Assembly: GCA_964654855.1 (NCBI GenBank)
Contig: CAZZJS010000002.1
Location: 15,285-79,284, forward strand
Direction: 5' to 3'
Source of the DNA: an uncultured Rickettsiales bacterium
GTDB taxonomy: Bacteria; Pseudomonadota; Alphaproteobacteria; Rickettsiales; JALZUV01
DNA: 64,000 nucleotides
A program made the position numbers and the translations under genes. A model generated the notes under the pieces. It had not been told where the DNA came from. It did no database searches and saw only the letters and a list, made by a program, of their open reading frames with translations. Below, piece by piece: positions 1 to 27,093 of the stretch (within the stretch, counting starts at the first letter, position 1; each line of letters begins with the position of its first letter).

Positions 1-459
1 ATTGAGCATTTCGTGGAGCATTACGCACAAAAAAACAATTCTGCGACTCCTACCCTTACCGATGAAGCGACAGATTATCTATTACAATATGAATGGCCAG
101 GAAATGTCCGTGAACTAGAAACAGCAATTCAGCGCGCAGTGATTCTTGATACAGATGGCTCAATTAGCGTGAGTGCCTTCACTCACTTTCTTTCCAATAC
201 CGCCTATATGGGGCAACCCGACCTTAATATTACGGGAGAAATAAATGGACATGTTGGTCTCCGCAATCAACAAGGGCAATTCAAGCCACTAAAGGCAATG
301 GAATGGGAAATTATGGAGCAAGTCCTCAATGCTTATCAAGGTAATGTCGTGGCAGCTTCAAAAGCATTAGGTATTGGGAAATCAACTCTTTATCGCCGTA
401 TTGATGAAGAAAAAGAAGGTGACACTCTTACAGAACCTGTCGAAGATACTGGAACTTGA
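1..459 (+). CDS. sigma54-dependent enhancer-binding protein, C-terminal part (end of AAA+ domain + Fis-type HTH); 5' truncated by window edge; SypG-like by context
   Basis: Frame open from base 1; YEWPGNVRELETAIQRA motif and C-terminal AASKALGIGKSTLYRRI HTH. Confidence 0.9.
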   Translation: MEHFVEHYAQKNNSATPTLTDEATDYLLQYEWPGNVRELETAIQRAVILDTDGSISVSAFTHFLSNTAYMGQPDLNITGEINGHVGLRNQQGQFKPLKAMEWEIMEQVLNAYQGNVVAASKALGIGKSTLYRRIDEEKEGDTLTEPVEDTGT

Positions 460-1331
460 GCTTGGCTGCGAGGTTTGGATACACAATCCTCGATTGCCTG
501 CTTCAATTTAACCGCCTGAAACGGCTTACTTAAGTAATGGTTCACTCCTAATATCTCTGATTCATATTGATCTTCTTTTCGCTGACTTCCACTGAGCATA
601 ATAATCGCCGCATGCGCATCTACTTGCCGGAGCCATCGGGCAACCTCGCACCCAGACATATCAGGTAACCCAATATCAAGAATACACAAATCTGGCTGTT
701 GGTTCAAAAACTCATACACTGCAGATTGCGCGTTGAACGCTCGAATTAAATGATAATCTCGACCTACAATGCTACGTAACAGGCTATGAATATGTGGTTC
801 ATCATCAATCACCAAGATCGTGGGTATTTGAGAGTTTTTTGTAAATTTCTCTGTATAATAGTCATCACTCACTTCGGCACTGACGGGAGGAAGAGAAAGT
901 TTTTTTGTCGCAGGATCGCGCAAATCTGCTTGCATCATTTGCTGTAAATAAGGCAAAGCCTGATCAATGGTTCCATACTGAATTGCAGAATCATCTACTG
1001 GTACAACTTCGCCTATTTCTTCAGTATATCCATAAAAATTGGAAAGATTTTCAACAACACCTTCCACATCCAAAATATTATCGCTACAGAGTAAAATAAT
1101 AGTATGCGTTTCTTCAATGAAACAATGCCAGAGTATATCACTCGTTCTCTCGATCACATTAAACATCTGCGGCAAACTATTCTCACTAATCGCACGATGA
1201 CGCTCTTTCGAAACACCTAAAGCCTCAATATTTACCATAATAACGTGCCACTTGGCTTCGCCTTCATATGAAATATCAGTTAATTTACTCTTCAAAGACT
1301 GATAGTTACTCTCTCGTATTATCGTTTCCAT
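390..1331 (-). CDS. Response regulator with unrecognised N-terminal domain and C-terminal REC domain
   Basis: ILVIDDEP...DLCILDIGLPDMSG...LSG...YLSKPF; 3' end overlaps the convergent activator gene by about 70 bp. Confidence 0.8.
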   Translation of the reverse strand: METIIRESNYQSLKSKLTDISYEGEAKWHVIMVNIEALGVSKERHRAISENSLPQMFNVIERTSDILWHCFIEETHTIILLCSDNILDVEGVVENLSNFYGYTEEIGEVVPVDDSAIQYGTIDQALPYLQQMMQADLRDPATKKLSLPPVSAEVSDDYYTEKFTKNSQIPTILVIDDEPHIHSLLRSIVGRDYHLIRAFNAQSAVYEFLNQQPDLCILDIGLPDMSGCEVARWLRQVDAHAAIIMLSGSQRKEDQYESEILGVNHYLSKPFQAVKLKQAIEDCVSKPRSQAQVPVSSTGSVRVSPSFSSSIRR

Positions 1332-1346
1332 ATCTCTTTATTCTCC

Positions 1347-2807
1347 TTAAATATAAAACCATTCACCAGCCAGCATTAGACACATAATGGCTAAAAATGT
1401 TCCTGCGGTACTACGTATGGTTTGTATTTTGCTGATAGGTAAGATATCTGCCATTTTATTAACAGAGCGGCGCCCCAGCGAATGGTAGCTAATATCAGTC
1501 TCTTCCATTTTCTTAGGGTCATAAATATTGCGTAAATCTAACATGAGAGCACTACGCATCAGCACTCCTATTTTTGATAAATCTAAATTTGTAAATTCAG
1601 ACCACTCTGTCGCGATAATTACCATATCTGCATTCTGAACGGCATGATAGGCATCAGCGGCATAATGAACGGTTTCAGGCAATTGCACCTTCGCATCTTC
1701 CATTGCCAATGGATCATAGACTACAAGATCAGCACTTTCCTTCACAAGCGCTCGAATTAATTCAAGCGCTGGGCTATCACGCATATCATCGGTACCAGCT
1801 TTAAACGCAAGCCCTAAGACTGCAATACGTTTACCCGAAACGCCATCCGTTAGCTCGCGAATGCGCTTCATAATACGCCCATGACGTGCTTCATTACTCA
1901 CCATCACACTATGCATAACACTCATAGGGGCATTAAAATGATTACCTATATGGACAAGAGCTTTTGAATCTTTTGGAAAACAAGAACCACCGAACCCAGG
2001 CCCAGGATTTAGAAACTGCGTGCCAATACGGCTATCGTAACCAATGCCACGTTTAATATCGTCCATATTACCACCGAGCTTCTCAGACAAATCAGCCAAC
2101 TCATTGGCAAAACAAACCTTCGTTGCTAACAGTCCATTCGCGGCATATTTAATAAGTTCTGCACTAACTGTATCGGTTTCAACCAACGCAATACCATTAC
2201 TAGTCAAAGGGCGATATAATCGATTCATTATATCACTCGCTTGTTGGCTATTGCTGCCGACAACGATGCGCTCAGCTTGCATGAAATCTTTAATCGCTGA
2301 ACCTTCACGTAAAAATTCAGGATTTGAAATAACATCTACTTCAACATCCCAATCTACATCAAGGCCAGCCCTTTCACGAGCAGCGTATATTTTGCGTTCA
2401 ACCAACGAAGCAGTGTTTGGAGGAACAGTCGATTTATTGACTATTACCGTATAACCTTCCAAATGTTTTGACACTTCTTCAGCAGCTTGAATCACATACG
2501 TTAGATCTGCTTTACCGTCCTCACGGGATGGGGTACCTACACATAAAAATACAATATCGGCCTCAGACACCGATTGCCCGAAATGATTAGAAAACTGCAA
2601 CTTACCTAGCTCAATATTGCGCTGTAATATCTCTTCTAGCCCTTCTTCATAAATGGTTGGAATTCCCTGCTTTAGTTGTGTAATTTTTTGCTTATCAGTA
2701 TCAATACAGGTAACGCGATGGCCTATTTCTGCCAAACAACAACCCGTCACAAGCCCTACATAACCTGTGCCAATAACGGTAATCTTGAGTGAAGGTGTTT
2801 TCATCAT
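1347..2807 (-). CDS. ugd: UDP-glucose 6-dehydrogenase
   Basis: GTGYVG Rossmann motif, SNPEFLREG, KYAANG, catalytic GFGGSCFPKD, LGLAFKAGTDDMRDSP. Confidence 0.95.
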   Translation of the reverse strand: MMKTPSLKITVIGTGYVGLVTGCCLAEIGHRVTCIDTDKQKITQLKQGIPTIYEEGLEEILQRNIELGKLQFSNHFGQSVSEADIVFLCVGTPSREDGKADLTYVIQAAEEVSKHLEGYTVIVNKSTVPPNTASLVERKIYAARERAGLDVDWDVEVDVISNPEFLREGSAIKDFMQAERIVVGSNSQQASDIMNRLYRPLTSNGIALVETDTVSAELIKYAANGLLATKVCFANELADLSEKLGGNMDDIKRGIGYDSRIGTQFLNPGPGFGGSCFPKDSKALVHIGNHFNAPMSVMHSVMVSNEARHGRIMKRIRELTDGVSGKRIAVLGLAFKAGTDDMRDSPALELIRALVKESADLVVYDPLAMEDAKVQLPETVHYAADAYHAVQNADMVIIATEWSEFTNLDLSKIGVLMRSALMLDLRNIYDPKKMEETDISYHSLGRRSVNKMADILPISKIQTIRSTAGTFLAIMCLMLAGEWFYI

Positions 2808-2842: not shown

Positions 2843-2858
2843 AGCAAAGGCAATGCCA
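2843..2858 (-). promoter_or_regulatory. sigma54 -24/-12 promoter for ugd
   Basis: Minus strand TGGCAT-TGCCT-TTGCT (GG-N10-GC), about 35 bp upstream of the start codon. Confidence 0.75.
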
Positions 2859-3535: not shown

Positions 3536-4367
3536 ACTGCTCGCATGGATCGCATTGATTGGCTGCTTAAATGGGCTTAGTCGATCTATACTCGTTTCAA
3601 TATCAGAGCATGGTATAGTCAATGCGGTTATATCTGGGTTCCATCTCAATTTATTTGTCGTGATTGCCATTATCGCTGCATTGCGCCTGATAATAGGCGC
3701 AAAAGATAGCCACCCCCTCACGCTTACCGATAAGCATATAATCTCATTATTTTTCATTATATTAATGATTCCCAGCGCTATGACTAGCTGGTCTACTCTG
3801 GCTTGTTTCTCACTTTGGTGTATCTGGAAATATCGTCATAACCCGCGGGTATGTGCTGGCTTTTCTATCCTATTGGCCGTTGGAATACGTGAGCCAGTAG
3901 TGATGATATTGTTAAAAAGTCTGGCACCCGTGGTGCTAACTTTAGATGCAGTATTCGCACAAACATTTGCTGACTTTATGGGATTGTCTTCTCAACGCCA
4001 TGATAACCTAATTACTACAGAGCAAGGTCGATCAATTCTTATTCTCGCAGGGTGTTCTTCAGTCAGCAACCTTTCCCTAATTTGGTTAGGGTGGCTGGTC
4101 GTAGCACGCAACCTATCTTATCAATGGCAAAAACGTGATGCACTCGCACTTACAACACTCACCCTGATGGTACTAATACTTAACTGGCTTCGCCTAGCAG
4201 TGCTAACTCTCTCTCAAGAAGCGTATCACTGGCTCCATGGTGAGACCGGCCTCATAGTATATCAAACCATATTACTCATTCTGATGTTTCTAATTATTCG
4301 GAGGATCTATGCAAAAGAGATTATGGATTATTATCATCCTGCTCGCCAGCATCACGCTGTGGGGTAA
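3516..4367 (+). CDS. Exosortase/archaeosortase-family membrane transpeptidase
   Basis: About 8 hydrophobic segments with Cys (ILAGCSSVSNL), Arg (LNWLRLAVL) and His (YHWLHGETG) in the exosortase order. Confidence 0.75.
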   Translation: MHLSHHKLLAWIALIGCLNGLSRSILVSISEHGIVNAVISGFHLNLFVVIAIIAALRLIIGAKDSHPLTLTDKHIISLFFIILMIPSAMTSWSTLACFSLWCIWKYRHNPRVCAGFSILLAVGIREPVVMILLKSLAPVVLTLDAVFAQTFADFMGLSSQRHDNLITTEQGRSILILAGCSSVSNLSLIWLGWLVVARNLSYQWQKRDALALTTLTLMVLILNWLRLAVLTLSQEAYHWLHGETGLIVYQTILLILMFLIIRRIYAKEIMDYYHPARQHHAVG

Positions 4368-4791
4368 GGTCATGCGTTATCATACGCCTCTTCACAACAT
4401 AGAAGAGCATGTAAACATACAGTTAGAAAACACCATGAAAGAGCAAGGTTTCGAGCTTCTGGCACACCAAACCCTCACTTCAAGCGGTGTATTCTCTGCC
4501 TATCATTACACACACCAAAACTGTATTGGAGAGCTTACGATTACTCCTCTTTTCAAAAGCGCAGAAGCCGTCAGCATGGTTCAAAAGGACAGCCAAAAAC
4601 CAGTTTTCTATTATCGCCATTATCAAGGCGAAGCATTTCCGAACTGGTATTATCTCTGGCGCGAAGGAATTGCCCCATTACGACGCATGGCAGAGCTAGA
4701 AACCATTACCTTTCCCGCTGTTCTAGCGATATATGATCCATCAAATTGCGTGCAAGATGCATCCCTTTCGTTTGAGGAGTTCTGGCAATGA
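4309..4791 (+). CDS. Exosortase-adjacent protein with one N-terminal TM/signal segment (EpsI-like position)
   Basis: Hydrophobic LWIIIILLASITLWG followed by a soluble domain; overlaps exosortase 3' end; ATGA overlap with next gene. Confidence 0.55.
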   Translation: MQKRLWIIIILLASITLWGKVMRYHTPLHNIEEHVNIQLENTMKEQGFELLAHQTLTSSGVFSAYHYTHQNCIGELTITPLFKSAEAVSMVQKDSQKPVFYYRHYQGEAFPNWYYLWREGIAPLRRMAELETITFPAVLAIYDPSNCVQDASLSFEEFWQ

Positions 4792-5828
4792 GTCATTTCC
4801 TAAATAAAAAACAAGAAATTTGGCTAACAGTCGATTCCCGTCACTTTGGTGGAATTGAAACACATCTTTACCAACTAGCCACTGGATTGGTCAAAACAGG
4901 CTATCACCCACGTATTGTCTTCTTACGCGATTACGGCAAACACCCTTTAAGAAAGGCATTGCAAAAAGCCGAAATTCCCATCACTACTCTCACCCACCCT
5001 TTACGAGGATGGAAAGAAGCAATCTCACATTATAAACCTGCTTTGATTCATACACATGGTTATAAAGCAGGAATATTAGGCCGCCTCGCCGCTTATCGAA
5101 ATAATATTGCCTGTGTGTCTACCTATCATAGCGGAGATGCCAATAATGGTCGCTTAAAATGCTATCGCTGGTTCGATGAGCACACCGCTTCGCTCGCACA
5201 AAAGGTGATTGCCATAAGCGAGAATGTGGCTGCACGACTCCCCTCTCATGCGGCTATTATCCCTAACTTTGTGCCTGTTCCTTCAGATATCACTGAGCAT
5301 ACCGGTAAGCACATTGCCTTTGTTGGTCGACTTTCACACGAAAAAGGGCCTGACTATTTTGTAGAACTCGCAAAATCACTCCCCCAACACCTCTTTACCG
5401 TATATGGCGATGGCCCCATGCGCGAAACATTAGATGTTGTAGAAAATTTGAATTTTATTGGACAAGTCGATTCAATGGAACCTCACTGGCAAAAGATTGA
5501 TTTGCTTATTATGCCTTCTCGCCGCGAAGGTTTACCACTCGCAGCCTTAGAATCCATGGCACATAGAATCCCCGTAATCGCAAGCGCCGTAGGTGGTCTC
5601 CCCTCTCTTATACAAGATAAAGAAAACGGATTTTTGGTAGAAACCGGTAACCTCGCAGAATTGAGTAAGATTGCCTCTCATTGGTACCAGTTAGATGAGG
5701 TCACTCGCCAAACCATATGCCAAAAAGCGCAACAAACAGTTCGCGAGCAATACTCACCAGAAGTCATTTTACCGCAAATTATTCAACAATATGAGGAAGC
5801 TTATGCGCATCGGCACCCTACTCGGTAG
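4788..5828 (+). CDS. GT4 glycosyltransferase (SypH-like)
   Basis: GGIETH, HTHGYKA, FVGRLSHEKG, PSRREGLPLAALESMA. Confidence 0.9.
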   Translation: MSHFLNKKQEIWLTVDSRHFGGIETHLYQLATGLVKTGYHPRIVFLRDYGKHPLRKALQKAEIPITTLTHPLRGWKEAISHYKPALIHTHGYKAGILGRLAAYRNNIACVSTYHSGDANNGRLKCYRWFDEHTASLAQKVIAISENVAARLPSHAAIIPNFVPVPSDITEHTGKHIAFVGRLSHEKGPDYFVELAKSLPQHLFTVYGDGPMRETLDVVENLNFIGQVDSMEPHWQKIDLLIMPSRREGLPLAALESMAHRIPVIASAVGGLPSLIQDKENGFLVETGNLAELSKIASHWYQLDEVTRQTICQKAQQTVREQYSPEVILPQIIQQYEEAYAHRHPTR

Positions 5829-6963
5829 TTTCCCTGTTTTATCTGAAAGTTTTATTCGTAATGAAATTCATGCATTGCGTAAAACCGGCCTACCCGTTGA
5901 TATCGTTGCGATGGTTAAGGAGGAGAGCACACAGCTTTCCAAACAAGAACAGGAATTGGTAAAGACTGCCACCTATTTGCAAGATCTACCACCCCCATCG
6001 TGGAGTAAGGTATTAAAATTCCTACCCAATATCCTATCAATCATCCCATTTTTGTGGGCACAGAAAGAATTATCACCAGCATCCTTGCTTTATCACGGTA
6101 TCAGAATAGCCCTTAAAGGCTATGAGCTAGGATGGACACATATCCATACGCATTTTGCTTGGGGGCATGCTTCTTACGCGATTGTAGCCGCAAAGTTATT
6201 AAACATTCCCGTTACCTTAACGTGCCATGGATCGGATGTGTATGCCACACCACAAGACTTGCAGGCCAAGTTAGATCATAGTGATTCGATCATTGCCGTA
6301 TGCGATGAAATGCGAGAAACTCTTGCCGCACAAACGCACACTCCTATACAGATAATTGCTTGCGGAGTGGATACAGACGAATTTACTCCACTAAAAACGA
6401 AGAAATCGAATGGTCGATTATTATTCGTCGGACGCTTAATCGATTGCAAAGGCGTGGACGATTTACTGCATGCAATGACTGCATTACCCACCAAACACCG
6501 ATTACCTCTAGATATTATCGGTGATGGCCCTTTGCGCGCTGAACTTGAACAACTCAGCAAAGAATTAGAATTAGACGAGTCAGTTTCTTTCTTAGGCGCA
6601 AAACCAGCCAACTGGTTGAAAAAGAATGGCCCGCATTATCATGCATTTGTCTCTGCATTTCGAGAAGGAGAAGACGGTGCTAAGGATACTGGTCCCATCG
6701 TAATCAAGGAAGCAATGGCAATGGGTTTGCCCATTATAAGCACTGAATTTATGGGAATTCCAGAGATGGTTGACCCCACTTGTGGCACCCTTATTCCTCC
6801 TAAAAATCGCGAAGCATTGCAGCAAGCTCTCTTCCAGCTTTGGGAAAAACCAGAGAGCAAACGACTCAGAATGGGAGAAAATGGCCGAAAGAAGTTAATC
6901 GATAATTTCTCGATTAACAAGCAAATACACGATCTTAGGTCGTTATGGAGTGATCTGGCATAA
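5803..6963 (+). CDS. GT4 glycosyltransferase (SypI/J-like)
   Basis: FPVLSESFIRNEI, HIHTHF, FVGRLIDCKG, DTGPIVIKEAMAMG; start chosen at the ATG after a GAGG SD. Confidence 0.9.
   Translation: MRIGTLLGSFPVLSESFIRNEIHALRKTGLPVDIVAMVKEESTQLSKQEQELVKTATYLQDLPPPSWSKVLKFLPNILSIIPFLWAQKELSPASLLYHGIRIALKGYELGWTHIHTHFAWGHASYAIVAAKLLNIPVTLTCHGSDVYATPQDLQAKLDHSDSIIAVCDEMRETLAAQTHTPIQIIACGVDTDEFTPLKTKKSNGRLLFVGRLIDCKGVDDLLHAMTALPTKHRLPLDIIGDGPLRAELEQLSKELELDESVSFLGAKPANWLKKNGPHYHAFVSAFREGEDGAKDTGPIVIKEAMAMGLPIISTEFMGIPEMVDPTCGTLIPPKNREALQQALFQLWEKPESKRLRMGENGRKKLIDNFSINKQIHDLRSLWSDLA
6832..6846. promoter_or_regulatory. Candidate activator-binding palindrome
   Basis: TTCCA-GCTTT-GGGAA, about 110 bp upstream of the sigma54 site at 6956. 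Confidence 0.45.
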
Positions 6964-7018: not shown

Positions 7019-8323
7019 ATGCGTCACTTTTTTCGCTCTTTAAACCATGCCCTCTGCTACGCGTTGGCGATTGCATTAGGCAAAGGTGTGTCGCTTTTGA
7101 TGCTACCCATTATCACCCATGCATTACCCGTTGCTGATTATGGACGATTAGAGCTAATGGTCGCCATTGCGGATATGGGGGGAGTTTTGCTTGGATTTAG
7201 CCTCGTCGATGCGCTATTTCGTTTCTCGGGCAGTGCTAAAACTCTAAAGCGCTCCAAAAAGCAAGCCGCCTCTATTTTTGGATTATGTTTAGTTTTGGCA
7301 CTTGTTGCGCTTTTATTCGGACAGCTATTAATACCAGCCTTACTACTTATCTTACCTGAATCCGTTATCGAAAGTGAGTTACGCATTCTGCTAGCCACCT
7401 TGTCGTTAACGGCTTTAATACAGGTACCGCTAGCCTGGTTACGCATGCAAGATCATGTGTACCGCTATTGTTTCTTATTTGGCGGGAAGGCACTACTCCA
7501 AGCTGGGCTAATCTGGACAGCACTGCATGCAGGTTATGGTGTTGTAGGTATCTTACTAGCAGGGTTAATGGTCGATCTTCTGCTTTGCGCCATTTTGTGC
7601 GCACAACAATATAGTCAAACTTCTGTGCGCTTTCACTGGTTAGAGACAAAATGTATTCTACCTTATAGCCTGCCTTTAATTCTGGGCGCGTTAGCTTGTT
7701 GTCTGCTCGGCAGTTTTGATCGTTTCTTTTTAGCCCCAATCGTAGGGGAAACGGCCTTGGCTCATTATGCATTAGCCGGTAAATTTGCTTTGATGGTCGC
7801 GCTACTCGCTGAACCTTTTAACATGTGGTGGTTTCCTCGTCGTTTTCGTCTCCTACAAGAACAAGATGGTGCATTACACAGCGCACGCAATGTGATGCTG
7901 GGAGTCGGCTATATTACTATCGCAGCAGCCATGGTTTCTGCGTTAGCTCCTTGTTTAATCACATGGCTAACTCCTGAAACTTATCACTCAGCTACCAAAT
8001 GGGTAGCGCCCTTATGCGGGATCGCGGCCTTACATGCGATCACTAACTTAATGAATATTGGAGTTTATGCAGGACGCACCGGCTGGCTCCCTAGCTTCAT
8101 CAACTTAAGCAGCGCAACTATCGCACTCATCGGATACCTACTACTTATCCCAATACACGGTGTCGGCGGTGCTATTGGTGCCACTTATCTGGCATTCGGA
8201 GTACGATTCGGTCTCTTTTTCTTCCTCAGTCAACAGCGTGTACCCATTCCTTATTTACGAGGTCTCGCCTCATTATGGAGCGATATAGGATTCAAAAGGA
8301 GGCTGTCTTATGAGCTTTCCTAA
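7019..8323 (+). CDS. Wzx-type polysaccharide flippase (SypK-like)
   Basis: Many TM segments; LLMLPIITHALPVADYG; DRFFLAPIVG..ALAHYALA. Confidence 0.85.
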   Translation: MRHFFRSLNHALCYALAIALGKGVSLLMLPIITHALPVADYGRLELMVAIADMGGVLLGFSLVDALFRFSGSAKTLKRSKKQAASIFGLCLVLALVALLFGQLLIPALLLILPESVIESELRILLATLSLTALIQVPLAWLRMQDHVYRYCFLFGGKALLQAGLIWTALHAGYGVVGILLAGLMVDLLLCAILCAQQYSQTSVRFHWLETKCILPYSLPLILGALACCLLGSFDRFFLAPIVGETALAHYALAGKFALMVALLAEPFNMWWFPRRFRLLQEQDGALHSARNVMLGVGYITIAAAMVSALAPCLITWLTPETYHSATKWVAPLCGIAALHAITNLMNIGVYAGRTGWLPSFINLSSATIALIGYLLLIPIHGVGGAIGATYLAFGVRFGLFFFLSQQRVPIPYLRGLASLWSDIGFKRRLSYELS

Positions 8324-9746
8324 TACGGCCAGCATCGCAATGAATGCACACACACCCGCTTCTCCTGCTATACTAACTGGATTGATGTGGCTGTGGTGTC
8401 TTGTGGGTATGGGAGTGCTCTATACCACAAGGGAGCCTCTCTTTTTACTGGTAATGATGATTCTACCACTCAGTGCCATCATGGGACTAAAACTCCCTTT
8501 CTTACTAGCAATGGGCTTTGTGCTATTCTCTTTCTTCCGAATACATGAAGCGTTCCCCTTTTTGATGCCGCTTCATATTCCCAAGCTCCTTTCCTTAGGA
8601 GCAATCGCAAGCTTTAGTTTGCTGTTATTACAGAAGCGTATCAAACTATTCTGGACTACTGAACTCACCTGCTTCGCCCTCTTTTTCTTCTATTGTAGCA
8701 TCAGTATTCTTTTAGCCGAAAACCGTGGATTGGCCTTTGCTTATTGGAGTGGCATTTACGCAAAAATTGCACTCATGGTATTCATCATTACCTACCTTAC
8801 GCGAACGCCACGCCAACTTCGCTGGATTAGCCGACTCATTGTGCTGACAGGTATGACAATTGCTATCGTTGCCATCAAAAACAAATTGCAAGGTATTGGA
8901 CTAGTCGAAGGCACACGCGTAACCATCAGCCGTGATTTAGGTAGCATCTTAGGCGATCCTAATGATCTAGCACTCACTCTACTCTTCCCATTCAGCTTTG
9001 CTATTACCATGGCCATGCGCTGGGGAGTACGGTGGGTAGACCGCTTCGTCGGCATTTTGGGAACAGGCATCATCTTGCTCGCCATTATTTATACGCAGAG
9101 CCGAGGCGGACTGCTTGGGATTGCTACCGTTATATTCACCCTAACCTGGTTTAGAGTACGTTCAAAAACCTTACTTATCGCCGGTGCTTTTTGCGCTGTT
9201 CTAGTATTATTTACATTAGCCGGTATTGCGGATCGCGCATCTGGCGGAACCCATGAAGAAGGACTAGATGAATCCGCCAGTATTCGTTTACATGCATGGA
9301 TGGCAGCTTTCAAAATGGCACTCTATAACCCGTTGACCGGTGTTGGGCTCGACAACTTTTATGCAAATTTCTTTTTCTATTCCGATTTCTGGGACAATAA
9401 AAACCACGCCGTACACTCCACTTGGTTTGGCGTAATGGCCGAAACAGGTTTTGTAGGATTCGGTTTATTTATCGCAATGATTTGGCAGTTATTGCGTACT
9501 GCTCGTAAATTGCATACGGCAACCTTGCATGCTGTACGAGCCGATGGAAAAGCCATTAGCCTTTCCATCACTTCTGAAGCGTTATTGGCAGGTATTCTTT
9601 CGTTCATTGTTTCTGGAACGTTCCTTACTCAGGGCTTTACCTGGCCAATATACATTCTGCTCGCACTAACCGTTGCGACCGTTCATATCCATCAGCAAAC
9701 GCTGAAAGATTCACACAGAAACCAATTAAACAGGAGATTATTATGA
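8310..9746 (+). CDS. O-antigen ligase/Wzy-type polymerase (SypL-like)
   Basis: LGDPNDLA, YTQSRGGLLG, SASIRLHAW, PLTGVGLDNF, HAVHSTW. Confidence 0.9.
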   Translation: MSFPNTASIAMNAHTPASPAILTGLMWLWCLVGMGVLYTTREPLFLLVMMILPLSAIMGLKLPFLLAMGFVLFSFFRIHEAFPFLMPLHIPKLLSLGAIASFSLLLLQKRIKLFWTTELTCFALFFFYCSISILLAENRGLAFAYWSGIYAKIALMVFIITYLTRTPRQLRWISRLIVLTGMTIAIVAIKNKLQGIGLVEGTRVTISRDLGSILGDPNDLALTLLFPFSFAITMAMRWGVRWVDRFVGILGTGIILLAIIYTQSRGGLLGIATVIFTLTWFRVRSKTLLIAGAFCAVLVLFTLAGIADRASGGTHEEGLDESASIRLHAWMAAFKMALYNPLTGVGLDNFYANFFFYSDFWDNKNHAVHSTWFGVMAETGFVGFGLFIAMIWQLLRTARKLHTATLHAVRADGKAISLSITSEALLAGILSFIVSGTFLTQGFTWPIYILLALTVATVHIHQQTLKDSHRNQLNRRLL

Positions 9747-17402: not shown

Positions 17403-17418
17403 TGGCACACCCGTTGCT
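17403..17418 (+). promoter_or_regulatory. sigma54 -24/-12 promoter for the STAS (sypA-like) operon
   Basis: TGGCAC-ACCCG-TTGCT, full consensus, 42 bp upstream of ATG 17461. Confidence 0.85.
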
Positions 17419-17784: not shown

Positions 17785-18224
17785 AACCGACTCTCCTAAT
17801 TTCTGTAATCGCGCTACTAGCCGGATGCAGCAGCTTCCCCCCTTATGGAACAGGTGGTTTTGCTGAGCATCAACGCTACACACATGAAAATGCTTATCCG
17901 AAAGCATTTACTCACTTTATCGGCAATTCACGCCAACGTGGCTGGCAGCATTATAATCTCAGAGCTATCAACTGCATCGATCATCGTCTAGCAGAGTTAC
18001 GCCAGCATGGCATCAATGAGCATTACCCCGCACAGCTCTGGTTAATTGAACAACAGCGTAATCGTACCTTGCGTCTTTTTGCAGGTGGCTTGGGCTGGGA
18101 TGCCGAACGTGAAGTTCAAGAGCTTTACCAAATGATGGAAGATTTGCAGGAGCGTCTAATTGATCAAAACCAGATCAAAATGGACTTCTACCAACATCCG
18201 GAGAAAACCCAATGCGATATTTAA
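17781..18224 (+). CDS. Lipoprotein in the sypB position; no OmpA domain seen
   Basis: Lipobox LLAGC followed by SSFPPYGTGGFAEH; translationally coupled to both neighbours. Confidence 0.65.
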   Translation: MKPTLLISVIALLAGCSSFPPYGTGGFAEHQRYTHENAYPKAFTHFIGNSRQRGWQHYNLRAINCIDHRLAELRQHGINEHYPAQLWLIEQQRNRTLRLFAGGLGWDAEREVQELYQMMEDLQERLIDQNQIKMDFYQHPEKTQCDI

Positions 18225-20441: not shown

Positions 20442-21197
20442 ATGACAGCCTATCAAATTCAATCTTCCAACACTCCGAACAACCCTGATAACATTACAAT
20501 CCCTGTTCATTACGTAGATATTGACCCACTCTTTAATGCCAGCATTGCACGCGGAGTGCGCAGCCTTTGCATAACCTCAAGTATGGCAAGAGAAGGAGTT
20601 TCAACCGTTGCATACTCTATTGCCAAACGCAGTGCAGCCAGCGGCAAAAAAACTCTGCTGGTAGATGCGAATTTAAATAACCCATGTGTAGGAGATAGAT
20701 TAGGCATTACTCAAAAAGATTGGGACGGAGAATTGAGTACTCTAACAGACGCACTTCATCACTTTGAAGGCATTAATTTGTCAATTCTAACAGGACTAAA
20801 TCGCCCTATTGCACCTTTAAACCTACGCGATCCCAATGGCATTAAAGAGTGGATAGAAAATCTGCTAGCGCAATTTGATATTATCATATTCGATTGCGCC
20901 CCCATAGGAGTTCCGTGCAACCAAGGAATTCCTAGCGATATCATAGCAACAAACTGTGACGGCTGTGTGTTGGTCGCGCAAGCAACACACACACCGCAAG
21001 AGCAACTATTACAGGCAATCTCTCACCTTCAAAATGTACAAGTTCCCTTATTGGGCTGTGTACTTAATCGCCAACATTATCCAGGGCTTTCAACGGAGAT
21101 GAAGAACGCCCTTCTATCAACTAAAACCCCTAAATTTATGGAGACATTATGGACACGGTTTATCATCAAACTACAGCATATCGAAACAATGCTGTAA
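20442..21197 (+). CDS. CpsD/CapB-like P-loop protein (SypD-like)
   Basis: ITSSMAREGVSTVA (degenerate Walker A), LLVDANL, IIIFDCAP, DGCVLVA, LGCVLNR. Confidence 0.8.
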   Translation: MTAYQIQSSNTPNNPDNITIPVHYVDIDPLFNASIARGVRSLCITSSMAREGVSTVAYSIAKRSAASGKKTLLVDANLNNPCVGDRLGITQKDWDGELSTLTDALHHFEGINLSILTGLNRPIAPLNLRDPNGIKEWIENLLAQFDIIIFDCAPIGVPCNQGIPSDIIATNCDGCVLVAQATHTPQEQLLQAISHLQNVQVPLLGCVLNRQHYPGLSTEMKNALLSTKTPKFMETLWTRFIIKLQHIETML

Positions 21198-22207
21198 TTA
21201 CCTCATTACGTACAACATTTTCTTATTTCGTAAGGCAAATTATGCATCTAACAAAAATGACTTTTTGGGGATTATTACTTATTAACGCCAGTTTATGCGT
21301 TATCTCCATTTTTGGTGATTTATTCTGGATCTCTGATGTATTGCATAATTTTGCTTTACACCTATTAGCCGGTTTTATTGTACTTTCAGTGACAGGTTTA
21401 TTGATAAAACAGCGAAAACTAGCAGCCATGGCGCTACTATTTATGATTCTACAAACTCTTCATATATCCCCACAACTACCAGAACTTTTACCCTTTTCAT
21501 CTCAACAAAACTGTGTCGAATGTAGCGGTGAAGAAATTAGCATTTTTCAATACAACTTACTCTTTTCAAACCCCAATATTCCCAAACTAGTAGAAGTAAT
21601 GCTTTCAAGGTTAGAACACGATGTCCTCGTATTCCAAGAAGTAACTGGCGCACACCAAGAAACGCTCGCACCGCTTGAATTTGCCTACCCCTTTGTCTAT
21701 CAGCAAAAAGACATTCGAGTATTTAGTCGGCTTCCTCTCGAAAAAGTAAGTTATAGCAAACATAATGCGTTTCTGGAGCTGATTGGACAAACCTCGCGTG
21801 CTCAAACGCCGTTCCATCTATTTGCAATTCACAGTACAGCACCCATTAATGCCCAAGCATGGAAAAAACGTAACCAACTGCTTATTGGTGCTGCTAAACA
21901 AATTGCGAAAGCTCCTATGCAACATAAGATACTCGTCGGCGATATGAACATAACTTCATATTCAAAATGGTTTCAGAAACTCATTAACTTGTCTGGCCTG
22001 CAAAACAACCAGAACCAACCGTTAATGAAGCCTAGTTGGTCACCTTTGGATAATCAGCCAATCTGGGCAAGTTTGAGAATTGACCATTTACTTACCAGTC
22101 CCTCAGTACAGGTACTAGAGCAACATATCGGCAATGACTTTGGCTCTGACCATCTACCAATTATCACACGGCTACAATTAACTAATGACGGATTATCAAC
22201 GCGGTAA
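21149..22207 (+). CDS. Membrane-anchored endonuclease/exonuclease/phosphatase family protein
   Basis: N-terminal TMs; QYNLL, VFQEV, LVGDMN, IDHLL, GSDHLPI; true start may be ATG 21242. Confidence 0.85.
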   Translation: MDTVYHQTTAYRNNAVITSLRTTFSYFVRQIMHLTKMTFWGLLLINASLCVISIFGDLFWISDVLHNFALHLLAGFIVLSVTGLLIKQRKLAAMALLFMILQTLHISPQLPELLPFSSQQNCVECSGEEISIFQYNLLFSNPNIPKLVEVMLSRLEHDVLVFQEVTGAHQETLAPLEFAYPFVYQQKDIRVFSRLPLEKVSYSKHNAFLELIGQTSRAQTPFHLFAIHSTAPINAQAWKKRNQLLIGAAKQIAKAPMQHKILVGDMNITSYSKWFQKLINLSGLQNNQNQPLMKPSWSPLDNQPIWASLRIDHLLTSPSVQVLEQHIGNDFGSDHLPIITRLQLTNDGLSTR

Positions 22208-23714
22208 CATCATCATATAGCACTTCACCAAAGTGCTGCGTATATCCGCTCCATAAATTGTCAGTCGATAATGAAGAGGTAGAGTTCTTTAACCATTTAT
22301 CAAATTGCTGCTGGGCTTGTGGGTCTCGGTTACCTTCCGTTAAACCATCGCTATACAATAAAACAGCCTGATTCTTAGATAATGTTAGCGAGTAAGACTC
22401 ATAAACTGTTCCCGCAAGCAACCCTGGCAACGCCCCCTCTATTGGCATCAGCTTTGCTCCCCCTTTGTCTAATAATATCGGAGGAGGATGCCCAGCACTG
22501 GCGATGGAAATAACCTCTTTGCGCAAAGAAACAATCTGACATGTAATGAAATTACCCGCCAGATACGGGTCAGCATCAATCATATCACTTAACCGTGCCA
22601 TCAGCACTTCTGGTGGTTCAACCGAGTCCATATGCTTGAGCAAACCATACAGATATCCCCCATATAAATGAGCGAAATACTTAGCTTTCGTGCCATGCCC
22701 CGTCACATCCGCGAGAAGAAGCAATTCATCCTGCGAACGTTTAAAATGCAGCACCATATCGCCGCCACCTGCACTGGCTTCCTTAAAGAGAAGTTCCGCT
22801 TCATACCCAGCAACATTAGAAGGGCAATGTGGAATCATCCTATCCGTTGCCTCAGCATCCAACTTTTCACCAATAGAATGAGTCAATTGCTGATTGCGTT
22901 GTAAAACGCGATGTACCGTATTGAGCAACTTCTCCTTCTCGATCGGCTTAGGCAAATAATCATCAACCCCCAAATCATAAGCTTGCTGTTCAATTGTGCT
23001 ATTCTCATTCGCAGTTAGAAAAACAAAGGGAATTGCTCGCAGAGCCGTATCTTGTTCTATTTGTTGACGCAGGGTAATACCATCCACATCTGGCAAACCA
23101 ATATCGCAAAGCACTAGATCAATCGATTGTGATTGCAAGATACCTTTAGCTTCTTGAGCATTGTAAGCCAGTAGAACATTATATTCTTCACCAAACATTT
23201 TGCGAATAAGCAAAGCCATAGGCTGCACATCTTCTACCACCAAGATCGTAGAAACAGAAGTTGAGCCAAATTCAGCAGCCAAGTTTTCTAGCGTGAAAGA
23301 CAAGATATTTTTCTCATCTTTGCGCTCATATTTCACCTTCGGAAAATGCTCACGTAGTAAATATAACCCCATACCTCCCGTATCGAGCTTTTCAACATCT
23401 AGCGTATCAGATAGTTGCTTTAGTTTTTGTTCAAATTCAGAGAAATAAGATCCATCATCTACGACACTAAAGGCCAGCATTCCCTGCGCTTCATCATGTT
23501 CTGCACGAATCAAAATATTATCTGCAACGTGTGAAGCATGCTCTACCAGATTCGTTATCCATTCTGAAAGCACTAACTGTACCGTCTGAATATCTTTATC
23601 AGTTAAATACTCGTTTAAGGCTTCTGCCAAATCATCCCGCAAAGGTCTGATTGCCGAAATCTCTGGGCGACATTCCTGATTAAAAATAGGAGTCATAATA
23701 GATAAAGTTTGCAT
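22182..23714 (-). CDS. RsbW-like kinase + REC + PP2C (SpoIIE) phosphatase (SypE-like)
   Basis: SEWITNLVEHA..VVDDG..GGMGLYL; ILVVED..DLVLCDIGLP..KP; GGDMV..LADVTGHG..YSDGLTE..DDVT. Confidence 0.88.
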   Translation of the reverse strand: MQTLSIMTPIFNQECRPEISAIRPLRDDLAEALNEYLTDKDIQTVQLVLSEWITNLVEHASHVADNILIRAEHDEAQGMLAFSVVDDGSYFSEFEQKLKQLSDTLDVEKLDTGGMGLYLLREHFPKVKYERKDEKNILSFTLENLAAEFGSTSVSTILVVEDVQPMALLIRKMFGEEYNVLLAYNAQEAKGILQSQSIDLVLCDIGLPDVDGITLRQQIEQDTALRAIPFVFLTANENSTIEQQAYDLGVDDYLPKPIEKEKLLNTVHRVLQRNQQLTHSIGEKLDAEATDRMIPHCPSNVAGYEAELLFKEASAGGGDMVLHFKRSQDELLLLADVTGHGTKAKYFAHLYGGYLYGLLKHMDSVEPPEVLMARLSDMIDADPYLAGNFITCQIVSLRKEVISIASAGHPPPILLDKGGAKLMPIEGALPGLLAGTVYESYSLTLSKNQAVLLYSDGLTEGNRDPQAQQQFDKWLKNSTSSLSTDNLWSGYTQHFGEVLYDDVTALIIRH

Positions 23715-23757: not shown

Positions 23758-25035
23758 ATGAAAAGAATTCTACTCATTTCCTACTATTTCCCTCCGCAGA
23801 CGAGTGTTGGAACCTTTCGTTTAAAGCGCTTTGTTGATCATATGAAACAATGTGGTTTGGATGTTACCATCCTGACCGTCAAAAATCCCGATAAACAATT
23901 TCATCCTTATTCAGGAGAAATGCCTCAAGAAGATAAATACCTAGGTGCCCCCGTTCATAGGGTGGCAGAATGGCCTGTGCGCTGGGTATGGCAATGGCCA
24001 ACACGTGCAGCAAAATTTTTGAGTAAATTGCTACCCATGCCCTTTCAAGAGCATTCCTTTGCCTCTCGTTTTTGGCATATCGATATGGAGTGGGGATGGA
24101 TTCAACCCGCTTATCGCAAAGCACGAGAATTGCTTAAAGCAGAACCGTTAGATGCAATCGTGATTAGTTGTCCGCCCTTTAGCTCTGCACATATTGGCGC
24201 TAAATTAAAAAAGCATCATAATATCCCACTCATATTAGATTTTCGTGATGGCTGGGTTGCTTCCTCTCCTTACCTACATCAAGTGGCGAAAAAAGATGGG
24301 CCGATAGAACAAAAACTACTCACTCAAACGGATCACTTAATCGTGACCTCCAAAAGCGATCAAGAATGTTATCAAGCACTCTTGGGTAAAGATAAGGTAT
24401 CGTTAATCTATAATGGTTATGACACTCCTTTTATTCTCTCTCAAAACGAAACCCCTGAAACAGCTCCCAAGGATGATACATTAAAACTCCTATATCTCGG
24501 CGCATGGGGAGTATTTGGACGTTCGCCAGAAAGGTTATTAAGGGCTCTAAAAGCAGCAAATATCCCTTGGCACCTAACCTCTATCGGCAGCACCAATGAA
24601 ATAGTAGAAAAATCTGCCCAGAAATTAGGGGTAATGGGTTCTATCAAATTAATAAGCAATCAACCTAAAGAAGCTTTGATACCGTGGATTGCAGAATCAG
24701 ACGCCCTATTTGTTATTAAAGGAGCACCTCCGCAAGGTGGCCGCGATACGCATATTGCGGCCAAAATATACGATTATCTCGCAACAGGAAAAGCAGTGCT
24801 AGGGCAATTACCCGAAGGCGATAGTAAAGACATGCTAGAAGAATACTGCCACCAGCCATTTATTGCACCACCCGAGGATCATGAGCAGCTTATTCAGCAA
24901 ATCCAAGCAATGCACAAAGCAAAGATCGAAAATAGGTTGGTGCTCAAACCCAATGATAAATTCTTGAAAGAATTTAGCGGCGAAGAACTTACACGCAAAT
25001 TTGTAGAAACTATTCTCAAAACAAACACAATATAA
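23758..25035 (+). CDS. GT4 glycosyltransferase
   Basis: SYYFPP, VISCPPFSS, DFRDGW, YNGYD, AKIYDYLATGKAVL. Confidence 0.85.
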   Translation: MKRILLISYYFPPQTSVGTFRLKRFVDHMKQCGLDVTILTVKNPDKQFHPYSGEMPQEDKYLGAPVHRVAEWPVRWVWQWPTRAAKFLSKLLPMPFQEHSFASRFWHIDMEWGWIQPAYRKARELLKAEPLDAIVISCPPFSSAHIGAKLKKHHNIPLILDFRDGWVASSPYLHQVAKKDGPIEQKLLTQTDHLIVTSKSDQECYQALLGKDKVSLIYNGYDTPFILSQNETPETAPKDDTLKLLYLGAWGVFGRSPERLLRALKAANIPWHLTSIGSTNEIVEKSAQKLGVMGSIKLISNQPKEALIPWIAESDALFVIKGAPPQGGRDTHIAAKIYDYLATGKAVLGQLPEGDSKDMLEEYCHQPFIAPPEDHEQLIQQIQAMHKAKIENRLVLKPNDKFLKEFSGEELTRKFVETILKTNTI

Positions 25036-25041
25036 CCCCCA

Positions 25042-25136: not shown

Positions 25137-25152
25137 TGGCACCCTGCTTGCT
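25137..25152 (+). promoter_or_regulatory. sigma54 -24/-12 promoter for the hybrid kinase
   Basis: TGGCAC-CCTGC-TTGCT, full consensus, 36 bp upstream of ATG 25189. Confidence 0.85.
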
Positions 25153-25188
25153 ACGATACACATTAAGAGTGAAAAGGAGCCACCTAAG

Positions 25189-27093
25189 ATGCTAATAGAT
25201 TATCAATCTGATGAAAAGAAGCCAATACCGCGCTTATTCATCCTCTTCATTGGGCTATTCAGCTTACTTTTCATAGCCATTTCAGCGATCGTTATCATCC
25301 CAAAACTAGATATATTTTCTTCTAACTTATCTGTAAATGGCTATGAACTAAATCTAGACAAAAACAGCAACGTAGAAGCACCTTCTAAAGTTTCCCGAGC
25401 ACCAGCAGAGAAAACCCCAGAATGCTTATACACCCTCATATCTCAGTTAGCGGCTGGCGCTTTTATTCTAACGGTATTCTTAGGATGGTTGGGGTATCGC
25501 ATAATCGTTACCCCCTATAAAGCACTCGAAAAAGCACATAATAAATTACTAATTTTGCAAGAAGCAGTGGAGCATATGAGCGATATTTTCATTGTTACCA
25601 AGGCCGATGATTTGGATAAAAACTTAGAGATTGTTTATGTTAACCCAGCCGCAACACAAATAAGTGGCTATTCAGCAGAAGAATTGATTGGCCAAACTCC
25701 TCGCATTTTTCAAGGCGATCAAACCGATCGTGTTGCTCTAGACCGAATACGTGCAGCATTAGAAAAAGGCAATAGTATTTCAGAAGAAATTATCAATCAT
25801 ACGAAAAAAGGAGAACCTTACTGGGTTCAAATCAATATTACCCCTATCCGTAACCGCCACGGCAAAATTATTTATTATGCAGCATTAGAAAGTGATATTT
25901 CCGAGAGAAAGCGACAGGAAGAAGCATTGCAAGAAGCAAAATCTGTTGCAGAAACCGCAAACCAAACAAAAACAGAATTTTTAGCAAGTATGAGCCACGA
26001 ACTTCGCACTCCAATGAACGGCGTACTCACTTCGGTTGAATTACTTTTAGATGAACCACTCGACGAAGAGCAGCATGGTATTGTTGACGTAATTCATCGT
26101 TCTGGAAAACACTTACTAACTATCCTCAATAACATTTTAGATATATCGAAAGTCGAATCTGGTGAAATAGAGTTAGAATCGCATCCCGTTCGTCTACAAC
26201 ACTTAGCAAATGAACTCGAACAGCTTTTCAGACCTGTCGCTGAAAATAAATCTATCGCTCTATCAGTTGAAGTTGCCTCTGAACTGCCTGCTTTTGTCAT
26301 GGGAGACTCAACACGTATCGCACAAGTTTTAGGCAACCTAACAGGTAATTCACTAAAATTCACACCCGAAGGAGGAGAGGTATCTATCACCATTTCCGCT
26401 GATCAAGCCTCCCCAAACCTTATTCACTTCACAGTTGAGGATACAGGCATCGGCATTGCTGAAGATAAGTTAGAAACAATATTTGATAAATTCTCACAAG
26501 CGGATGCCGCAACGACTCGTCAATATGGAGGAACAGGACTTGGTTTAGCAATTTCGAAAGAACTCGTCGAATTAATGAAGGGTCACATTCATGCCAAAAG
26601 CACTCTAGGCAAAGGCTCTTGTTTCACTTTCTCGTTACCGATGAATCCAATTCGGAAAAGTCAACTTTCTGTGAACACCAAAATACCATCAAACCCACTC
26701 CCTATTCCAGAAGACGTTCATATTCTTTTGGTAGAAGATTACCCCATTAATACACAGCTCATTCAGAAACAATTAAACAAAATTGGAATCAAAAAAATTC
26801 ACTGCGCTGAGGATGGCCTTGAAGCATTAAAAATGCTCTCTAAGAACCCAGACATTTACGATCTCATTTTATTAGATTGCCAAATGCCAAATCTAAATGG
26901 TTATGAAACAGCAGTACAAATAAGAGAGAGTGAGAAACATAGTGGCTCTCACATCCCTATAATCGCTATGACTGCCAATGCAATGGTTGGAGATAAAGAA
27001 AAATGCTTTTATGCTGGAATGGACGACTATTTAAGCAAACCCTTAAAACAAAACGACCTACACAAAAAACTAGGATATTGGTTAAGCTGTTAA
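25189..27093 (+). CDS. Membrane hybrid sensor histidine kinase (2 TM-PAS-HisKA-HATPase-REC)
   Basis: PAS (YVNPAATQISGYSAEELIG..KKGEPYW), ASMSHELRTPMNG, NSLKFT, DTGIGI, QYGGTGLGL, DLILLDCQMP. Confidence 0.93.
   Translation: MLIDYQSDEKKPIPRLFILFIGLFSLLFIAISAIVIIPKLDIFSSNLSVNGYELNLDKNSNVEAPSKVSRAPAEKTPECLYTLISQLAAGAFILTVFLGWLGYRIIVTPYKALEKAHNKLLILQEAVEHMSDIFIVTKADDLDKNLEIVYVNPAATQISGYSAEELIGQTPRIFQGDQTDRVALDRIRAALEKGNSISEEIINHTKKGEPYWVQINITPIRNRHGKIIYYAALESDISERKRQEEALQEAKSVAETANQTKTEFLASMSHELRTPMNGVLTSVELLLDEPLDEEQHGIVDVIHRSGKHLLTILNNILDISKVESGEIELESHPVRLQHLANELEQLFRPVAENKSIALSVEVASELPAFVMGDSTRIAQVLGNLTGNSLKFTPEGGEVSITISADQASPNLIHFTVEDTGIGIAEDKLETIFDKFSQADAATTRQYGGTGLGLAISKELVELMKGHIHAKSTLGKGSCFTFSLPMNPIRKSQLSVNTKIPSNPLPIPEDVHILLVEDYPINTQLIQKQLNKIGIKKIHCAEDGLEALKMLSKNPDIYDLILLDCQMPNLNGYETAVQIRESEKHSGSHIPIIAMTANAMVGDKEKCFYAGMDDYLSKPLKQNDLHKKLGYWLSC

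Follow-up and report, generated by a model that had tools for sequence, protein, structure and literature searches.

The window analyzed here, a 64,000-nt stretch from an uncultured alphaproteobacterium (G000:C2:15285-79284, G000 being the genome that holds it), opens inside what is read as a genuine syp/scv-type exopolysaccharide (EPS) locus, with a Wzx/Wzy-dependent assembly line under sigma-54 and partner-switch control. The probability of this reading is put at about 0.85. Support for it comes from homology to the syp genes of Vibrio fischeri, gene order, conserved catalytic residues, promoter motifs, and genomic context. Genes were called from a listing of open reading frames (ORFs) and Pfam scans, with NCBIfam as a second library; they are given in Table 1. 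An earlier reading of the same DNA (the original prediction) had listed a run of genes from an activator through glycosyltransferases, flippase, and exporter to two kinases, and by ORF listing and Pfam every one of them is present in its listed place with the domains named for it.

The reference for orthology was a 34-kb region of Aliivibrio sp. S3MY1 with 18 same-strand genes in the sizes and order of sypA-R. Fourteen reciprocal best hits were found (SypA, C, D, E, G, H, K, L, M, N, O, P, Q, and R; 30-58% identity, 81-99% coverage). With the Aliivibrio Syp proteins as queries against all G000 ORFs, the best matches of these 14 lie at the corresponding genes of the locus, from 30% identity (E) to 58% (R) at query coverages of 86-98%, and the window proteins searched against the Aliivibrio Syp set return the identical 14 pairs. 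All eight core genes from K to R (K, L, M, N, O, P, Q, R) are reciprocal best hits, at 36-58%, and in the same order, with just the DUF1194 gene and a small lipoprotein gene interposed; the collinear runs shared with Aliivibrio are K-L-(x)-M-N-(x)-O-P-Q-R and A-(B')-C-D. Chance resemblance is excluded by 14 collinear reciprocal best hits. The SypC-like exporter has a single match in each of five gammaproteobacterial genomes (four Vibrionaceae and one unclassified), at 47-50% identity over residues ~60-742 (E ~1e-215 to 1e-231), and in those five the match is always inside a syp locus. When species genomes were scanned with aligned SypE-like proteins, relatives matching over the full length turned up in Aliivibrio, Enterovibrio, Parasalinivibrio, Psychromonas, Zooshikella, and other genera, with the limit that the scan keyed on the receiver motif: some 70 of its 80 loci are unrelated REC proteins, and only about the top 10 are useful. 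The original prediction had called the locus homologous to V. fischeri syp and named reciprocal best hits as the check; run with Aliivibrio sp. S3MY1, this did not refute the homology, which is borne out further by the shared order and by the residues of SypA, SypD, and SypE.

The single-domain STAS protein has a serine, Ser55 in FLDSSGIG, aligned with the V. fischeri SypA phospho-serine S56. In the SypE-like protein N55, D204, D319, D336, D456, and D501 are all invariant relative to Aliivibrio SypE; N55 corresponds to the kinase asparagine (N52), D204 to the receiver aspartate (D192), and the metal-binding aspartates of the PP2C domain are kept. The kinase asparagine and receiver aspartate of V. 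fischeri SypE were studied by Morris and Visick (2013, PMC3610818). In SypD, the P-loop lysine is missing from 17 of 17 aligned members, Vibrionaceae included. The loop reads GEGV[ST][ST] in the window, in the same-genus genome G002, and in Vibrionaceae, with GDGAT or GEGNS variants in some alphaproteobacterial members, and the C-terminal tyrosine cluster is absent from the window and G002 sequences. To judge from these residues, the SypD-like protein is probably not an active BY-kinase. The SypA-like proteins of genomes G159, G310, and G428 have Ala or Pro at the S56 position (DASG, DPSG), and the 40 kb examined in each of them revealed no SypE-like gene; all loci with SypE keep the Ser. This pattern fits a loss of phospho-control.

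The promoter motifs point the same way. The genome has rpoN, and of its 13 perfect TGGCAC-N5-TTGC sites three are before genes of the locus, where ~0.2 would be expected. They lie 37-43 nt 5' of the sypA-like gene, the PAS kinase gene, and a gene for a 229-aa protein upstream of the window; there are also -24/-12 sites with one mismatch before ugd and the sypM-like gene. Most of these candidate promoters have a TTCCCA-N3-TGG box, often palindromic, 65-95 bp 5' of them. Ten of the 214 genome-wide matches to this box are inside the locus (~3.7 expected). The published upstream activating sequence (UAS) for V. fischeri SypG is TTCTCANNNTGMDWN, and the box half-site TTCCCA is one base apart from TTCTCA in its first half. 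Two tandem palindromes, TTCCCATATTGGGA, 20 bp apart (window -1901..-1866; G000:C2:13384-13419), are found 67 and 87 bp 5' of the perfect sigma-54 promoter of the 229-aa gene, just before the SypG-like gene, and may reflect autoregulation.

Several points weigh against a syp-type reading. The forward best-hit direction was genome-wide for SypC and SypE only (for SypE, in the form of the species-genome scan with the SypE-like alignment), the other proteins being compared with the locus set. No orthologue of the OmpA-like SypB was found, its position being held by a 147-aa lipoprotein with a weak match to SypB in its N-terminal part only (28%, E 2.6e-4); SypI has just a weak match in the locus (28% over 48% of its length), with its best G000 matches elsewhere; and SypJ has no blast match among all G000 ORFs. 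The polymer therefore need not resemble that of V. fischeri. The SypG assignment has little backing from the score by itself, 261 bits, since two other bacterial enhancer-binding proteins (bEBPs) reach 235 and 226. Upstream of the sypM-like gene, the one-mismatch site lies so near the annotated TTG start that it cannot be accepted as it stands, and the TTCCCA-N3-TGG boxes are candidate SypG-like enhancer sites on the strength of their motif. Among public sequencing runs, those with the window sequence are DNA only, from one algal metagenome sample.

A related possibility is that the locus is a syp homologue making a constitutive capsule or a glycan linked to lipopolysaccharide rather than a regulated biofilm matrix. 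Wzy_C is a family of O-antigen ligases as well as polymerases, glycosyltransferases of SypI and SypJ type have given way to others or are missing, ugd has been added, and sequence cannot tell function; set against this, the sigma-54 promoters, the bEBP, the hybrid kinases, and the SypA/SypE switch are all kept with intact catalytic residues, which makes this alternative improbable. Two non-orthologous GT4 genes keep the number of transferases equal to that of syp. Homologues of the 147-aa lipoprotein are encoded directly 5' of SypC in G178, G310, and G216.

The syp-type locus is longer than the window suggests. It had been taken to start at base 1; in fact the start of the activator gene is 977 bases ahead of the window, and conserved regulatory genes extend the locus to ~6.4 kb upstream (G000:C2:8861-15743). 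Their order is Bac_globin, a SypF-like kinase, two receivers with uncharacterized N-terminal domains, a free Hpt protein, the 229-aa gene, and the SypG-like gene, and they are collinear in the same-genus metagenome-assembled genome (MAG) G002. The SypF-like protein, a HisKA-HATPase-REC-Hpt hybrid kinase (G000:C2:9226-10956), is the best match to SypF genome-wide (35% over 67%). Because this best match, with its Hpt domain, adjoins the SypG-like gene, the true order is F-G-H..R-A..E, or with the extra genes F-G-(ugd, receivers, sortase pair)-H..R-A-B'-C-D-(EEP)-E(inverted). The original prediction, an H-R block placed before an A-F block, thus holds for A-E, which do lie behind R, but not for F, which is upstream beside G; the kinase gene at 25189-27093 encodes no Hpt domain, is absent from the G002 locus, and is specific to G000. 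The SypF-like hybrid kinase is soluble, and the globin-kinase pair is kept in G002. The stop codon of the globin gene (truncated-haemoglobin family) overlaps the kinase start by 4 nt (G000:C2:8861-10956; window -6423..-4328). By analogy with HnoX/HahK control of V. fischeri syp, the pair may be a gas-sensor input.

Compared with V. fischeri sypA-R (Yip et al., 2005; Morris and Visick, 2013, PMC3610818), the locus has in common 14 orthologues and the Wzx/Wzy machinery, including a multi-SLBB SypC, a lysine-less SypD, the SypA/SypE switch residues, a sigma-54 activator, and an Hpt hybrid kinase. It differs in that the A-E block is behind the F-R block, sypE is inverted, SypB is replaced by the 147-aa lipoprotein, and SypI and SypJ are replaced by other GT4s. 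Additions relative to V. fischeri are ugd, the EEP gene, an exosortase-like gene and its partner, DUF1194, a small lipoprotein, extra receiver and Hpt proteins, and the globin gene paired with that for the SypF-like kinase. The hosts differ too, that of the window being an alphaproteobacterium with a 1.9-Mb genome.

Neither the locus nor its permutation is as rare as the original prediction implied: the same block order and extra genes recur in other Alpha- and Gammaproteobacteria. In Psychromonas sp. psych-6C06 the order is ..O-P-Q-R-EEP-A-B-C-D-E-RR-x-F-G, with H..R likewise before A..E and a homologue of the EEP enzyme (31%) encoded between sypR and sypA; unlike in the window, an OmpA-type SypB is kept, and F and G are placed after E. 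The order in gammaproteobacterium 45_16_T64 is N-O-P-Q-A-B-C-D-E. In the alphaproteobacterium G261, which is unrelated to the host, it is H-X283-X160-K-L-M-N-O-P-Q-DUF1194-A-lipoprotein-C-D-E(inverted)-G, and this locus shares with the window the exosortase-like gene (X283) and its partner (X160), DUF1194, the small lipoprotein, and an inverted sypE. Protein identities between the window and these three loci are 28-61%. A SypC-type exporter was found in nine of 400 other evenly sampled alphaproteobacterial genomes (eight genera, 47-55% identity), and in three of 201 genomes of the host's order. G034, from another family of this order, has the arrangement C-D-H-E(inverted)-x-K-L on a short contig (L124 = G034:C13:1-7947); its SypE-like protein has 25% identity to that of the window.

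Gene content is also variable in the published loci. In their abstract and their results on distribution and diversity, Liu et al. (2022, PMC8941931) report scv/syp homologues in 28 genera, two of them alphaproteobacterial (Elstera and Terasakiella), with divergence, gene gain and loss, duplications, fusions, and integrase-linked horizontal transfer. The window's locus conforms to this pattern. By the same account scvB was lost in Aeromonas and Endozoicomonas, so SypB is not universal in syp/scv loci. The scv locus of V. parahaemolyticus is described there as having no equivalents of SypE, SypF, and SypM, which the window's locus does have; since scv lacks SypE, this protein is optional in the family. 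The uncultured lineage of the window is outside that survey, as far as these parts of it go.

The genes listed in the original prediction as added (ugd, exosortase genes, DUF1194, EEP, and an extra glycosyltransferase) are all present, although the exosortase call is just under the curated cut-off. X283 scores 22.0 bits against TIGR04178 (exo_archaeo), where the cut-off is 23 (E 1.5e-4, model positions 3-94 of 97), and four of six homologues match the same model (best E 1.2e-4), with a Vibrionaceae homologue at 16.7 bits. No named NCBIfam Xrt subfamily matches the X283 family. C180, R226, and H241 are invariant in six homologues; these are presumably the exosortase catalytic triad. To our knowledge there is no solved exosortase structure. 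The gene for the 160-aa partner always follows the exosortase-like gene. The tail of the DUF1194 protein, TAPAPILGTGLPILLLLLLYNKF..KNR, is the only convincing combination of P-x-P, hydrophobic helix, and basic C-terminus among the G000 ORFs, two other matches in the tail-motif screen looking like ordinary membrane-protein tails, and the DUF1194 protein is thus a candidate for the sole substrate of the exosortase-like protein.

Similar arrangements are found in other syp-type loci. A word-based search with X283 returned just two near-identical fragments; distant relatives came from a profile search. Over chosen genomes, the profile found strong relatives adjoining sypH in four other alphaproteobacterial loci and weaker ones (E 1e-16 to 1e-28) in G178, G212, G257, and two Vibrionaceae. 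In Parasalinivibrio latis the exosortase-like gene is between sypL and sypM, and in Ca. Enterovibrio altilux after sypK; in both, the genes that come next encode first a small anchored protein and then a ~313-aa secreted one whose C-terminus is ATAPLP plus a helix. The small gene, although at the partner position, has no detectable similarity to that for the 160-aa protein (blastp E > 2), and the cargo domain is unrelated, DUF1194 being that of the alphaproteobacteria. Neighboring proteins with (T/S)AP-x-P tails occur in G002, G261, Parasalinivibrio, and Ca. Enterovibrio. Since exosortase-like gene, partner, and tailed protein recur in this way, inside or next to the syp-type loci of several alphaproteobacterial families and two Vibrionaceae, the "added" genes are a recurrent syp module. 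The EEP gene, also present in Psychromonas, is a recurrent accessory as well. A GlmS paralogue often accompanies the module: in G002 it is encoded just 5' of the sypM-like gene (G002:C49:20180-21952; 39% to the housekeeping GlmS), and in Parasalinivibrio next after the module and before the sypM-like gene (L125:6885-8705; 46%). None is present in the window's locus.

These observations lead to the tentative proposal, given somewhat less than an even chance, that syp-type loci carry an undescribed and very divergent exosortase subfamily as an optional accessory module, made up of the sortase, an anchored partner, and one dedicated secreted substrate. No mention of such a module was found in the V. 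fischeri literature sampled, or in the abstract and the distribution and diversity results of Liu et al. (2022, PMC8941931). If the proposal is true, syp-type matrices in many bacteria would include a sortase-processed protein, and syp loci might be cousins of exosortase-linked EPS systems, with V. fischeri having lost the sorting module.

The same genes raise the question of whether this EPS locus belongs to the XrtA/PEP-CTERM exosortase type that Haft and colleagues described, and merely resembles syp. The best NCBIfam matches of its exporter, co-polymerase, Wzy_C protein, one GT4, and priming transferase are indeed to models of such systems (TIGR03027, TIGR03007, TIGR03097, TIGR03088, and TIGR03013), no syp-specific NCBIfam model having matched the window proteins, and the locus genes include one that is exosortase-like and one whose product has a PEP-CTERM-like tail. 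However, scores relative to cut-offs are 182/279 for TIGR03007, 134/188 for TIGR03097, 151/409 for TIGR03088, and 231/393 for TIGR03013; TIGR03027 alone is above its cut-off, and only through the repeated SLBB domains. The Aliivibrio Syp proteins score alike on these models (Aliivibrio/window pairs of 189/184, 135/134, 214/182, 145/151, and 233/231 bits), so the resemblance is general to Syp proteins and does not discriminate. In the window, as in the XrtA systems (TIGR03007, 03013, 03027, 03088, 03097, 02915), an EPS locus is paired with an exosortase or exosortase-like gene, but the window's sortase is far more divergent and in no named Xrt subfamily; the putative signal is (T/S)AP-x-P instead of PEP, with no match to the PEP-CTERM (TIGR02595) or VPLPA-CTERM models; there is one candidate substrate in the genome; and no PrsK-type kinase was recognized. 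With the SypA/SypE pair and the lysine-less SypD, both syp traits, an XrtA-type identity is very improbable.

The host genome G000 is 1.92 Mb, with 45.2% G+C and 99% completeness. The syp-type locus is on a single 252-kb contig with core genes that are syntenic with those of the same-genus genomes G001 and G002. GlmS from the window is 88% identical to a MAG protein labeled "Rickettsiales bacterium" and no more than 59% identical to those of named organisms, all of them Alphaproteobacteria (Emcibacter, Kordiimonas, Sphingomonas, and Rhodospirillales). These GlmS matches, together with the linkage of the locus to syntenic core genes, place the host in the Alphaproteobacteria, as the original prediction had it; a placement in the Gammaproteobacteria was not obtained. 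A test of the genome for the ATP/ADP translocase, a marker of a Rickettsiales-type lifestyle, was negative, in a run that had no positive control. A binning or assembly artefact was considered and rejected, the locus being physically joined to core genes in two independent assemblies (G000 and G002).

The locus is in a strain-variable region of at least 55 kb, with a tRNA-Ser gene as its right limit and its left end lost at a contig break. Synteny with G001 (three contigs) is perfect over window positions 40481-60394 and breaks at the position of the tRNA-Ser; it resumes ~3 kb past the break with orthologues of G000:C1:17776-21240. In G002 those orthologues are directly beside the globin end of the locus, and genes for a serine recombinase and a ParB-like protein come after its opposite end. 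Such a setting might suggest a recent import from Vibrionaceae or another gammaproteobacterium, as might the presence of the locus in only two of four genomes of the genus and three of 201 of the order. The G+C content of the locus is 42.2%, compared with 45.2% for the genome, a deviation too small to argue for transfer alone. Against import, identities to gammaproteobacterial proteins are just 30-58%, no higher than to other alphaproteobacterial loci, and the locus proteins of G000 and G002 themselves diverge by 13-50% (50-87% identity, where flanking core proteins have 82-96%), which implies a long presence of the locus in this lineage or a long exchange within it. In trees of SypC and of eight concatenated proteins (3501 columns), the gammaproteobacterial loci form one clade with 100/100 support, and the window and G002 are on their own long branch outside it. 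This position argues against a recent import from Vibrionaceae, which is very unlikely, and for an old separate lineage. Support for joining this branch to G261 and the gammaproteobacterial clade is only 90/91, in an unrooted tree. Overall, the sequences argue for an old syp-type lineage with a patchy distribution in Alpha- and Gammaproteobacteria; unrooted trees do not give the direction of ancient transfers.

The chemistry, signal flow, and biofilm role of the locus are inferred, and the sequences suggest the following scheme. From what is known of its family, the SypR-like transferase would prime undecaprenyl phosphate. The repeat unit would be built by six glycosyltransferases (H-, N-, P-, and Q-like, and the two non-orthologous GT4s) and the M-like acetyltransferase, with UDP-glucuronate supplied by Ugd, so that the polymer is probably acidic. 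The K-like flippase would then flip the repeat unit and the L-like Wzy_C protein polymerize it, while the O-like co-polymerase, D-like degenerate ATPase, C-like exporter, and small lipoprotein would carry the polymer across the envelope. The product is most likely an acetylated, uronic-acid-containing heteropolysaccharide made by the Wzx/Wzy route with SypC/SypO/SypD-type export. For control, a phosphorelay with the globin-coupled Hpt hybrid kinase, the second, PAS-containing hybrid kinase, the free Hpt protein, and several receivers as members may act on the SypG-like sigma-54 activator, and through it on -24/-12 promoters behind the TTCCCA-N3-TGG boxes. After transcription, the SypE-like kinase/phosphatase would set the phosphorylation of Ser55 in the SypA-like STAS protein and so gate production, as in V. 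fischeri.

Syp-type loci outside the Vibrionaceae, in Alphaproteobacteria among others, have already been published, and permutation is common. With this example, the range of syp/scv-type matrix loci takes in an uncultured alphaproteobacterial lineage that is associated with an alga and has a genome of 1.9 Mb, and the sampling suggests that such loci are commoner in Alphaproteobacteria than the two genera reported so far. It also suggests that the Vibrio gene order is not a reference state, as H-R before A-E recurs in both classes. The exosortase-like module stands out most; the lineage of the host, the island setting of the locus, and the coupling of a globin to the SypF-like kinase are also of note. 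In practical terms the value is modest: for comparative work on the V. fischeri model, the locus supplies naturally varied forms of the SypA/SypE switch, of the SypG enhancer box, and of a SypF-like kinase coupled to a globin.

Table 1. Features of the syp-type locus and related modules. Positions are window coordinates unless a contig or locus is named; identities are to Aliivibrio Syp proteins unless stated otherwise; RBH, reciprocal best hit.
Feature	Position	Strand	Evidence and remarks
SypG-like sigma-54 activator, 3' end	1..459	+	AAA_lid_14 + HTH_8 in window
Whole SypG-like gene	G000:C2:14307-15743		478 aa; REC + Sigma54_activat + AAA_lid_14 + HTH_8; 35%, 261 bits
REC protein, 313 aa, uncharacterized N-terminal domain	390..1331	-	Pfam Response_reg, residues 172-281; 57% conserved in G002; two paralogues upstream of window
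UDP-glucose 6-dehydrogenase (Ugd)	1347..2807	-	Three UDPG_MGDP_dh domains; TIGR03026, 435 bits; no counterpart among the 18 Aliivibrio syp genes
Candidate sigma-54 promoter, one mismatch	2844..2858	-	TGGCATTGCCTTTGC, 36 nt before ugd start
Candidate enhancer box TTCCCAATCTGAATAA	2911..2926	+	Divergent ugd/receiver intergenic region; one mismatch from TTCTCANNNTGMDWN
Stand-alone receiver, 139 aa	3116..3535	+	Pfam Response_reg
Divergent exosortase-like polytopic protein X283, 283 aa	3516..4367	+	~8 hydrophobic segments; no Pfam match
160-aa partner (X160)	4309..4791	+	One N-terminal hydrophobic segment (membrane anchor or signal); no family match
SypH-like GT4	4788..5828	+	RBH, 40%, 95-97% coverage
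GT4 in SypI position, not a clear orthologue	5695..6963	+	28% over 48% of SypI
SypK-like Wzx flippase	7019..8323	+	RBH, 36%; Pfam Polysacc_synt
SypL-like Wzy_C protein (polymerase/ligase family)	8310..9746	+	RBH, 47%; Pfam Wzy_C
Secreted DUF1194 protein	9743..10627	+	Pfam DUF1194, 166 bits; sorting-signal-like C-terminal tail TAPAPILGTGLPILLLLLLYNKFLFIKNR
SypM-like hexapeptide acetyltransferase	10642..11430	+	RBH, 44%
SypN-like glycosyltransferase (GT1)	11423..12544	+	RBH, 41%, 99% coverage
Small lipoprotein, 151 aa	12433..12888	+	No family match; 50% identity in G002; true start probably at internal MAMMNRT...LSAC lipobox
SypO-like co-polymerase (GNVR)	12885..14495	+	RBH, 39%
SypP-like GT4	14468..15577	+	RBH, 43%
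SypQ-like GT2	15544..16752	+	RBH, 44%
SypR-like small priming phosphoglycosyl transferase	16731..17393	+	RBH, 58%; Pfam Bac_transf
Perfect sigma-54 -24/-12 promoter	17403..17417	+	TGGCACACCCGTTGC, 43 nt before sypA-like start
SypA-like single-domain STAS protein	17461..17784	+	RBH, 36%
147-aa lipoprotein in SypB position	17781..18224	+	Lipobox LLAGC; no OmpA domain
SypC-like outer-membrane polysaccharide exporter, 742 aa	18212..20440	+	RBH; Poly_export + several SLBB domains
SypD-like degenerate ParA/BY-kinase-type (CpsD-like) ATPase	20442..21197	+	RBH, 31%
Membrane-anchored EEP-family enzyme	21149..22207	+	Pfam Exo_endo_phos; three N-terminal hydrophobic segments
SypE-like serine kinase-receiver-PP2C (HATPase_c_2-REC-SpoIIE)	22182..23714	-	RBH, 30% over 89-90%
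Extra glycosyltransferase	23758..25035	+	Pfam matches to GT4 N-terminal domain only; no Syp counterpart; 68% in G002
Perfect sigma-54 promoter	25137..25151	+	37 nt before PAS kinase gene; TTCCCATTTGG box 95 bp upstream
PAS-HisKA-HATPase-REC hybrid kinase without Hpt	25189..27093	+	Second-best SypF match, 38% over 51-61%
tRNA-Ser(UGA)	40112..40201	-	ARAGORN
Exosortase-like module, Parasalinivibrio latis	L125:4399-6702
Exosortase-like module, Ca. Enterovibrio altilux	L126:8641-10950

At permissive thresholds, Pfam and NCBIfam had no match for the partner of 160 aa, for either lipoprotein (151 and 147 aa), for the two upstream proteins of 229 and 1341 aa, or for the tail at the C-terminus of the DUF1194 protein. 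The 1341-aa ORF (G000:C2:3791-7816) is in the variable region to the left of the locus; it has no Pfam match below E 0.05 and was not found in the G002 version of the region. On the other side, the next gene after the locus, within 27220-40201, encodes a protein with a NOV_C domain.

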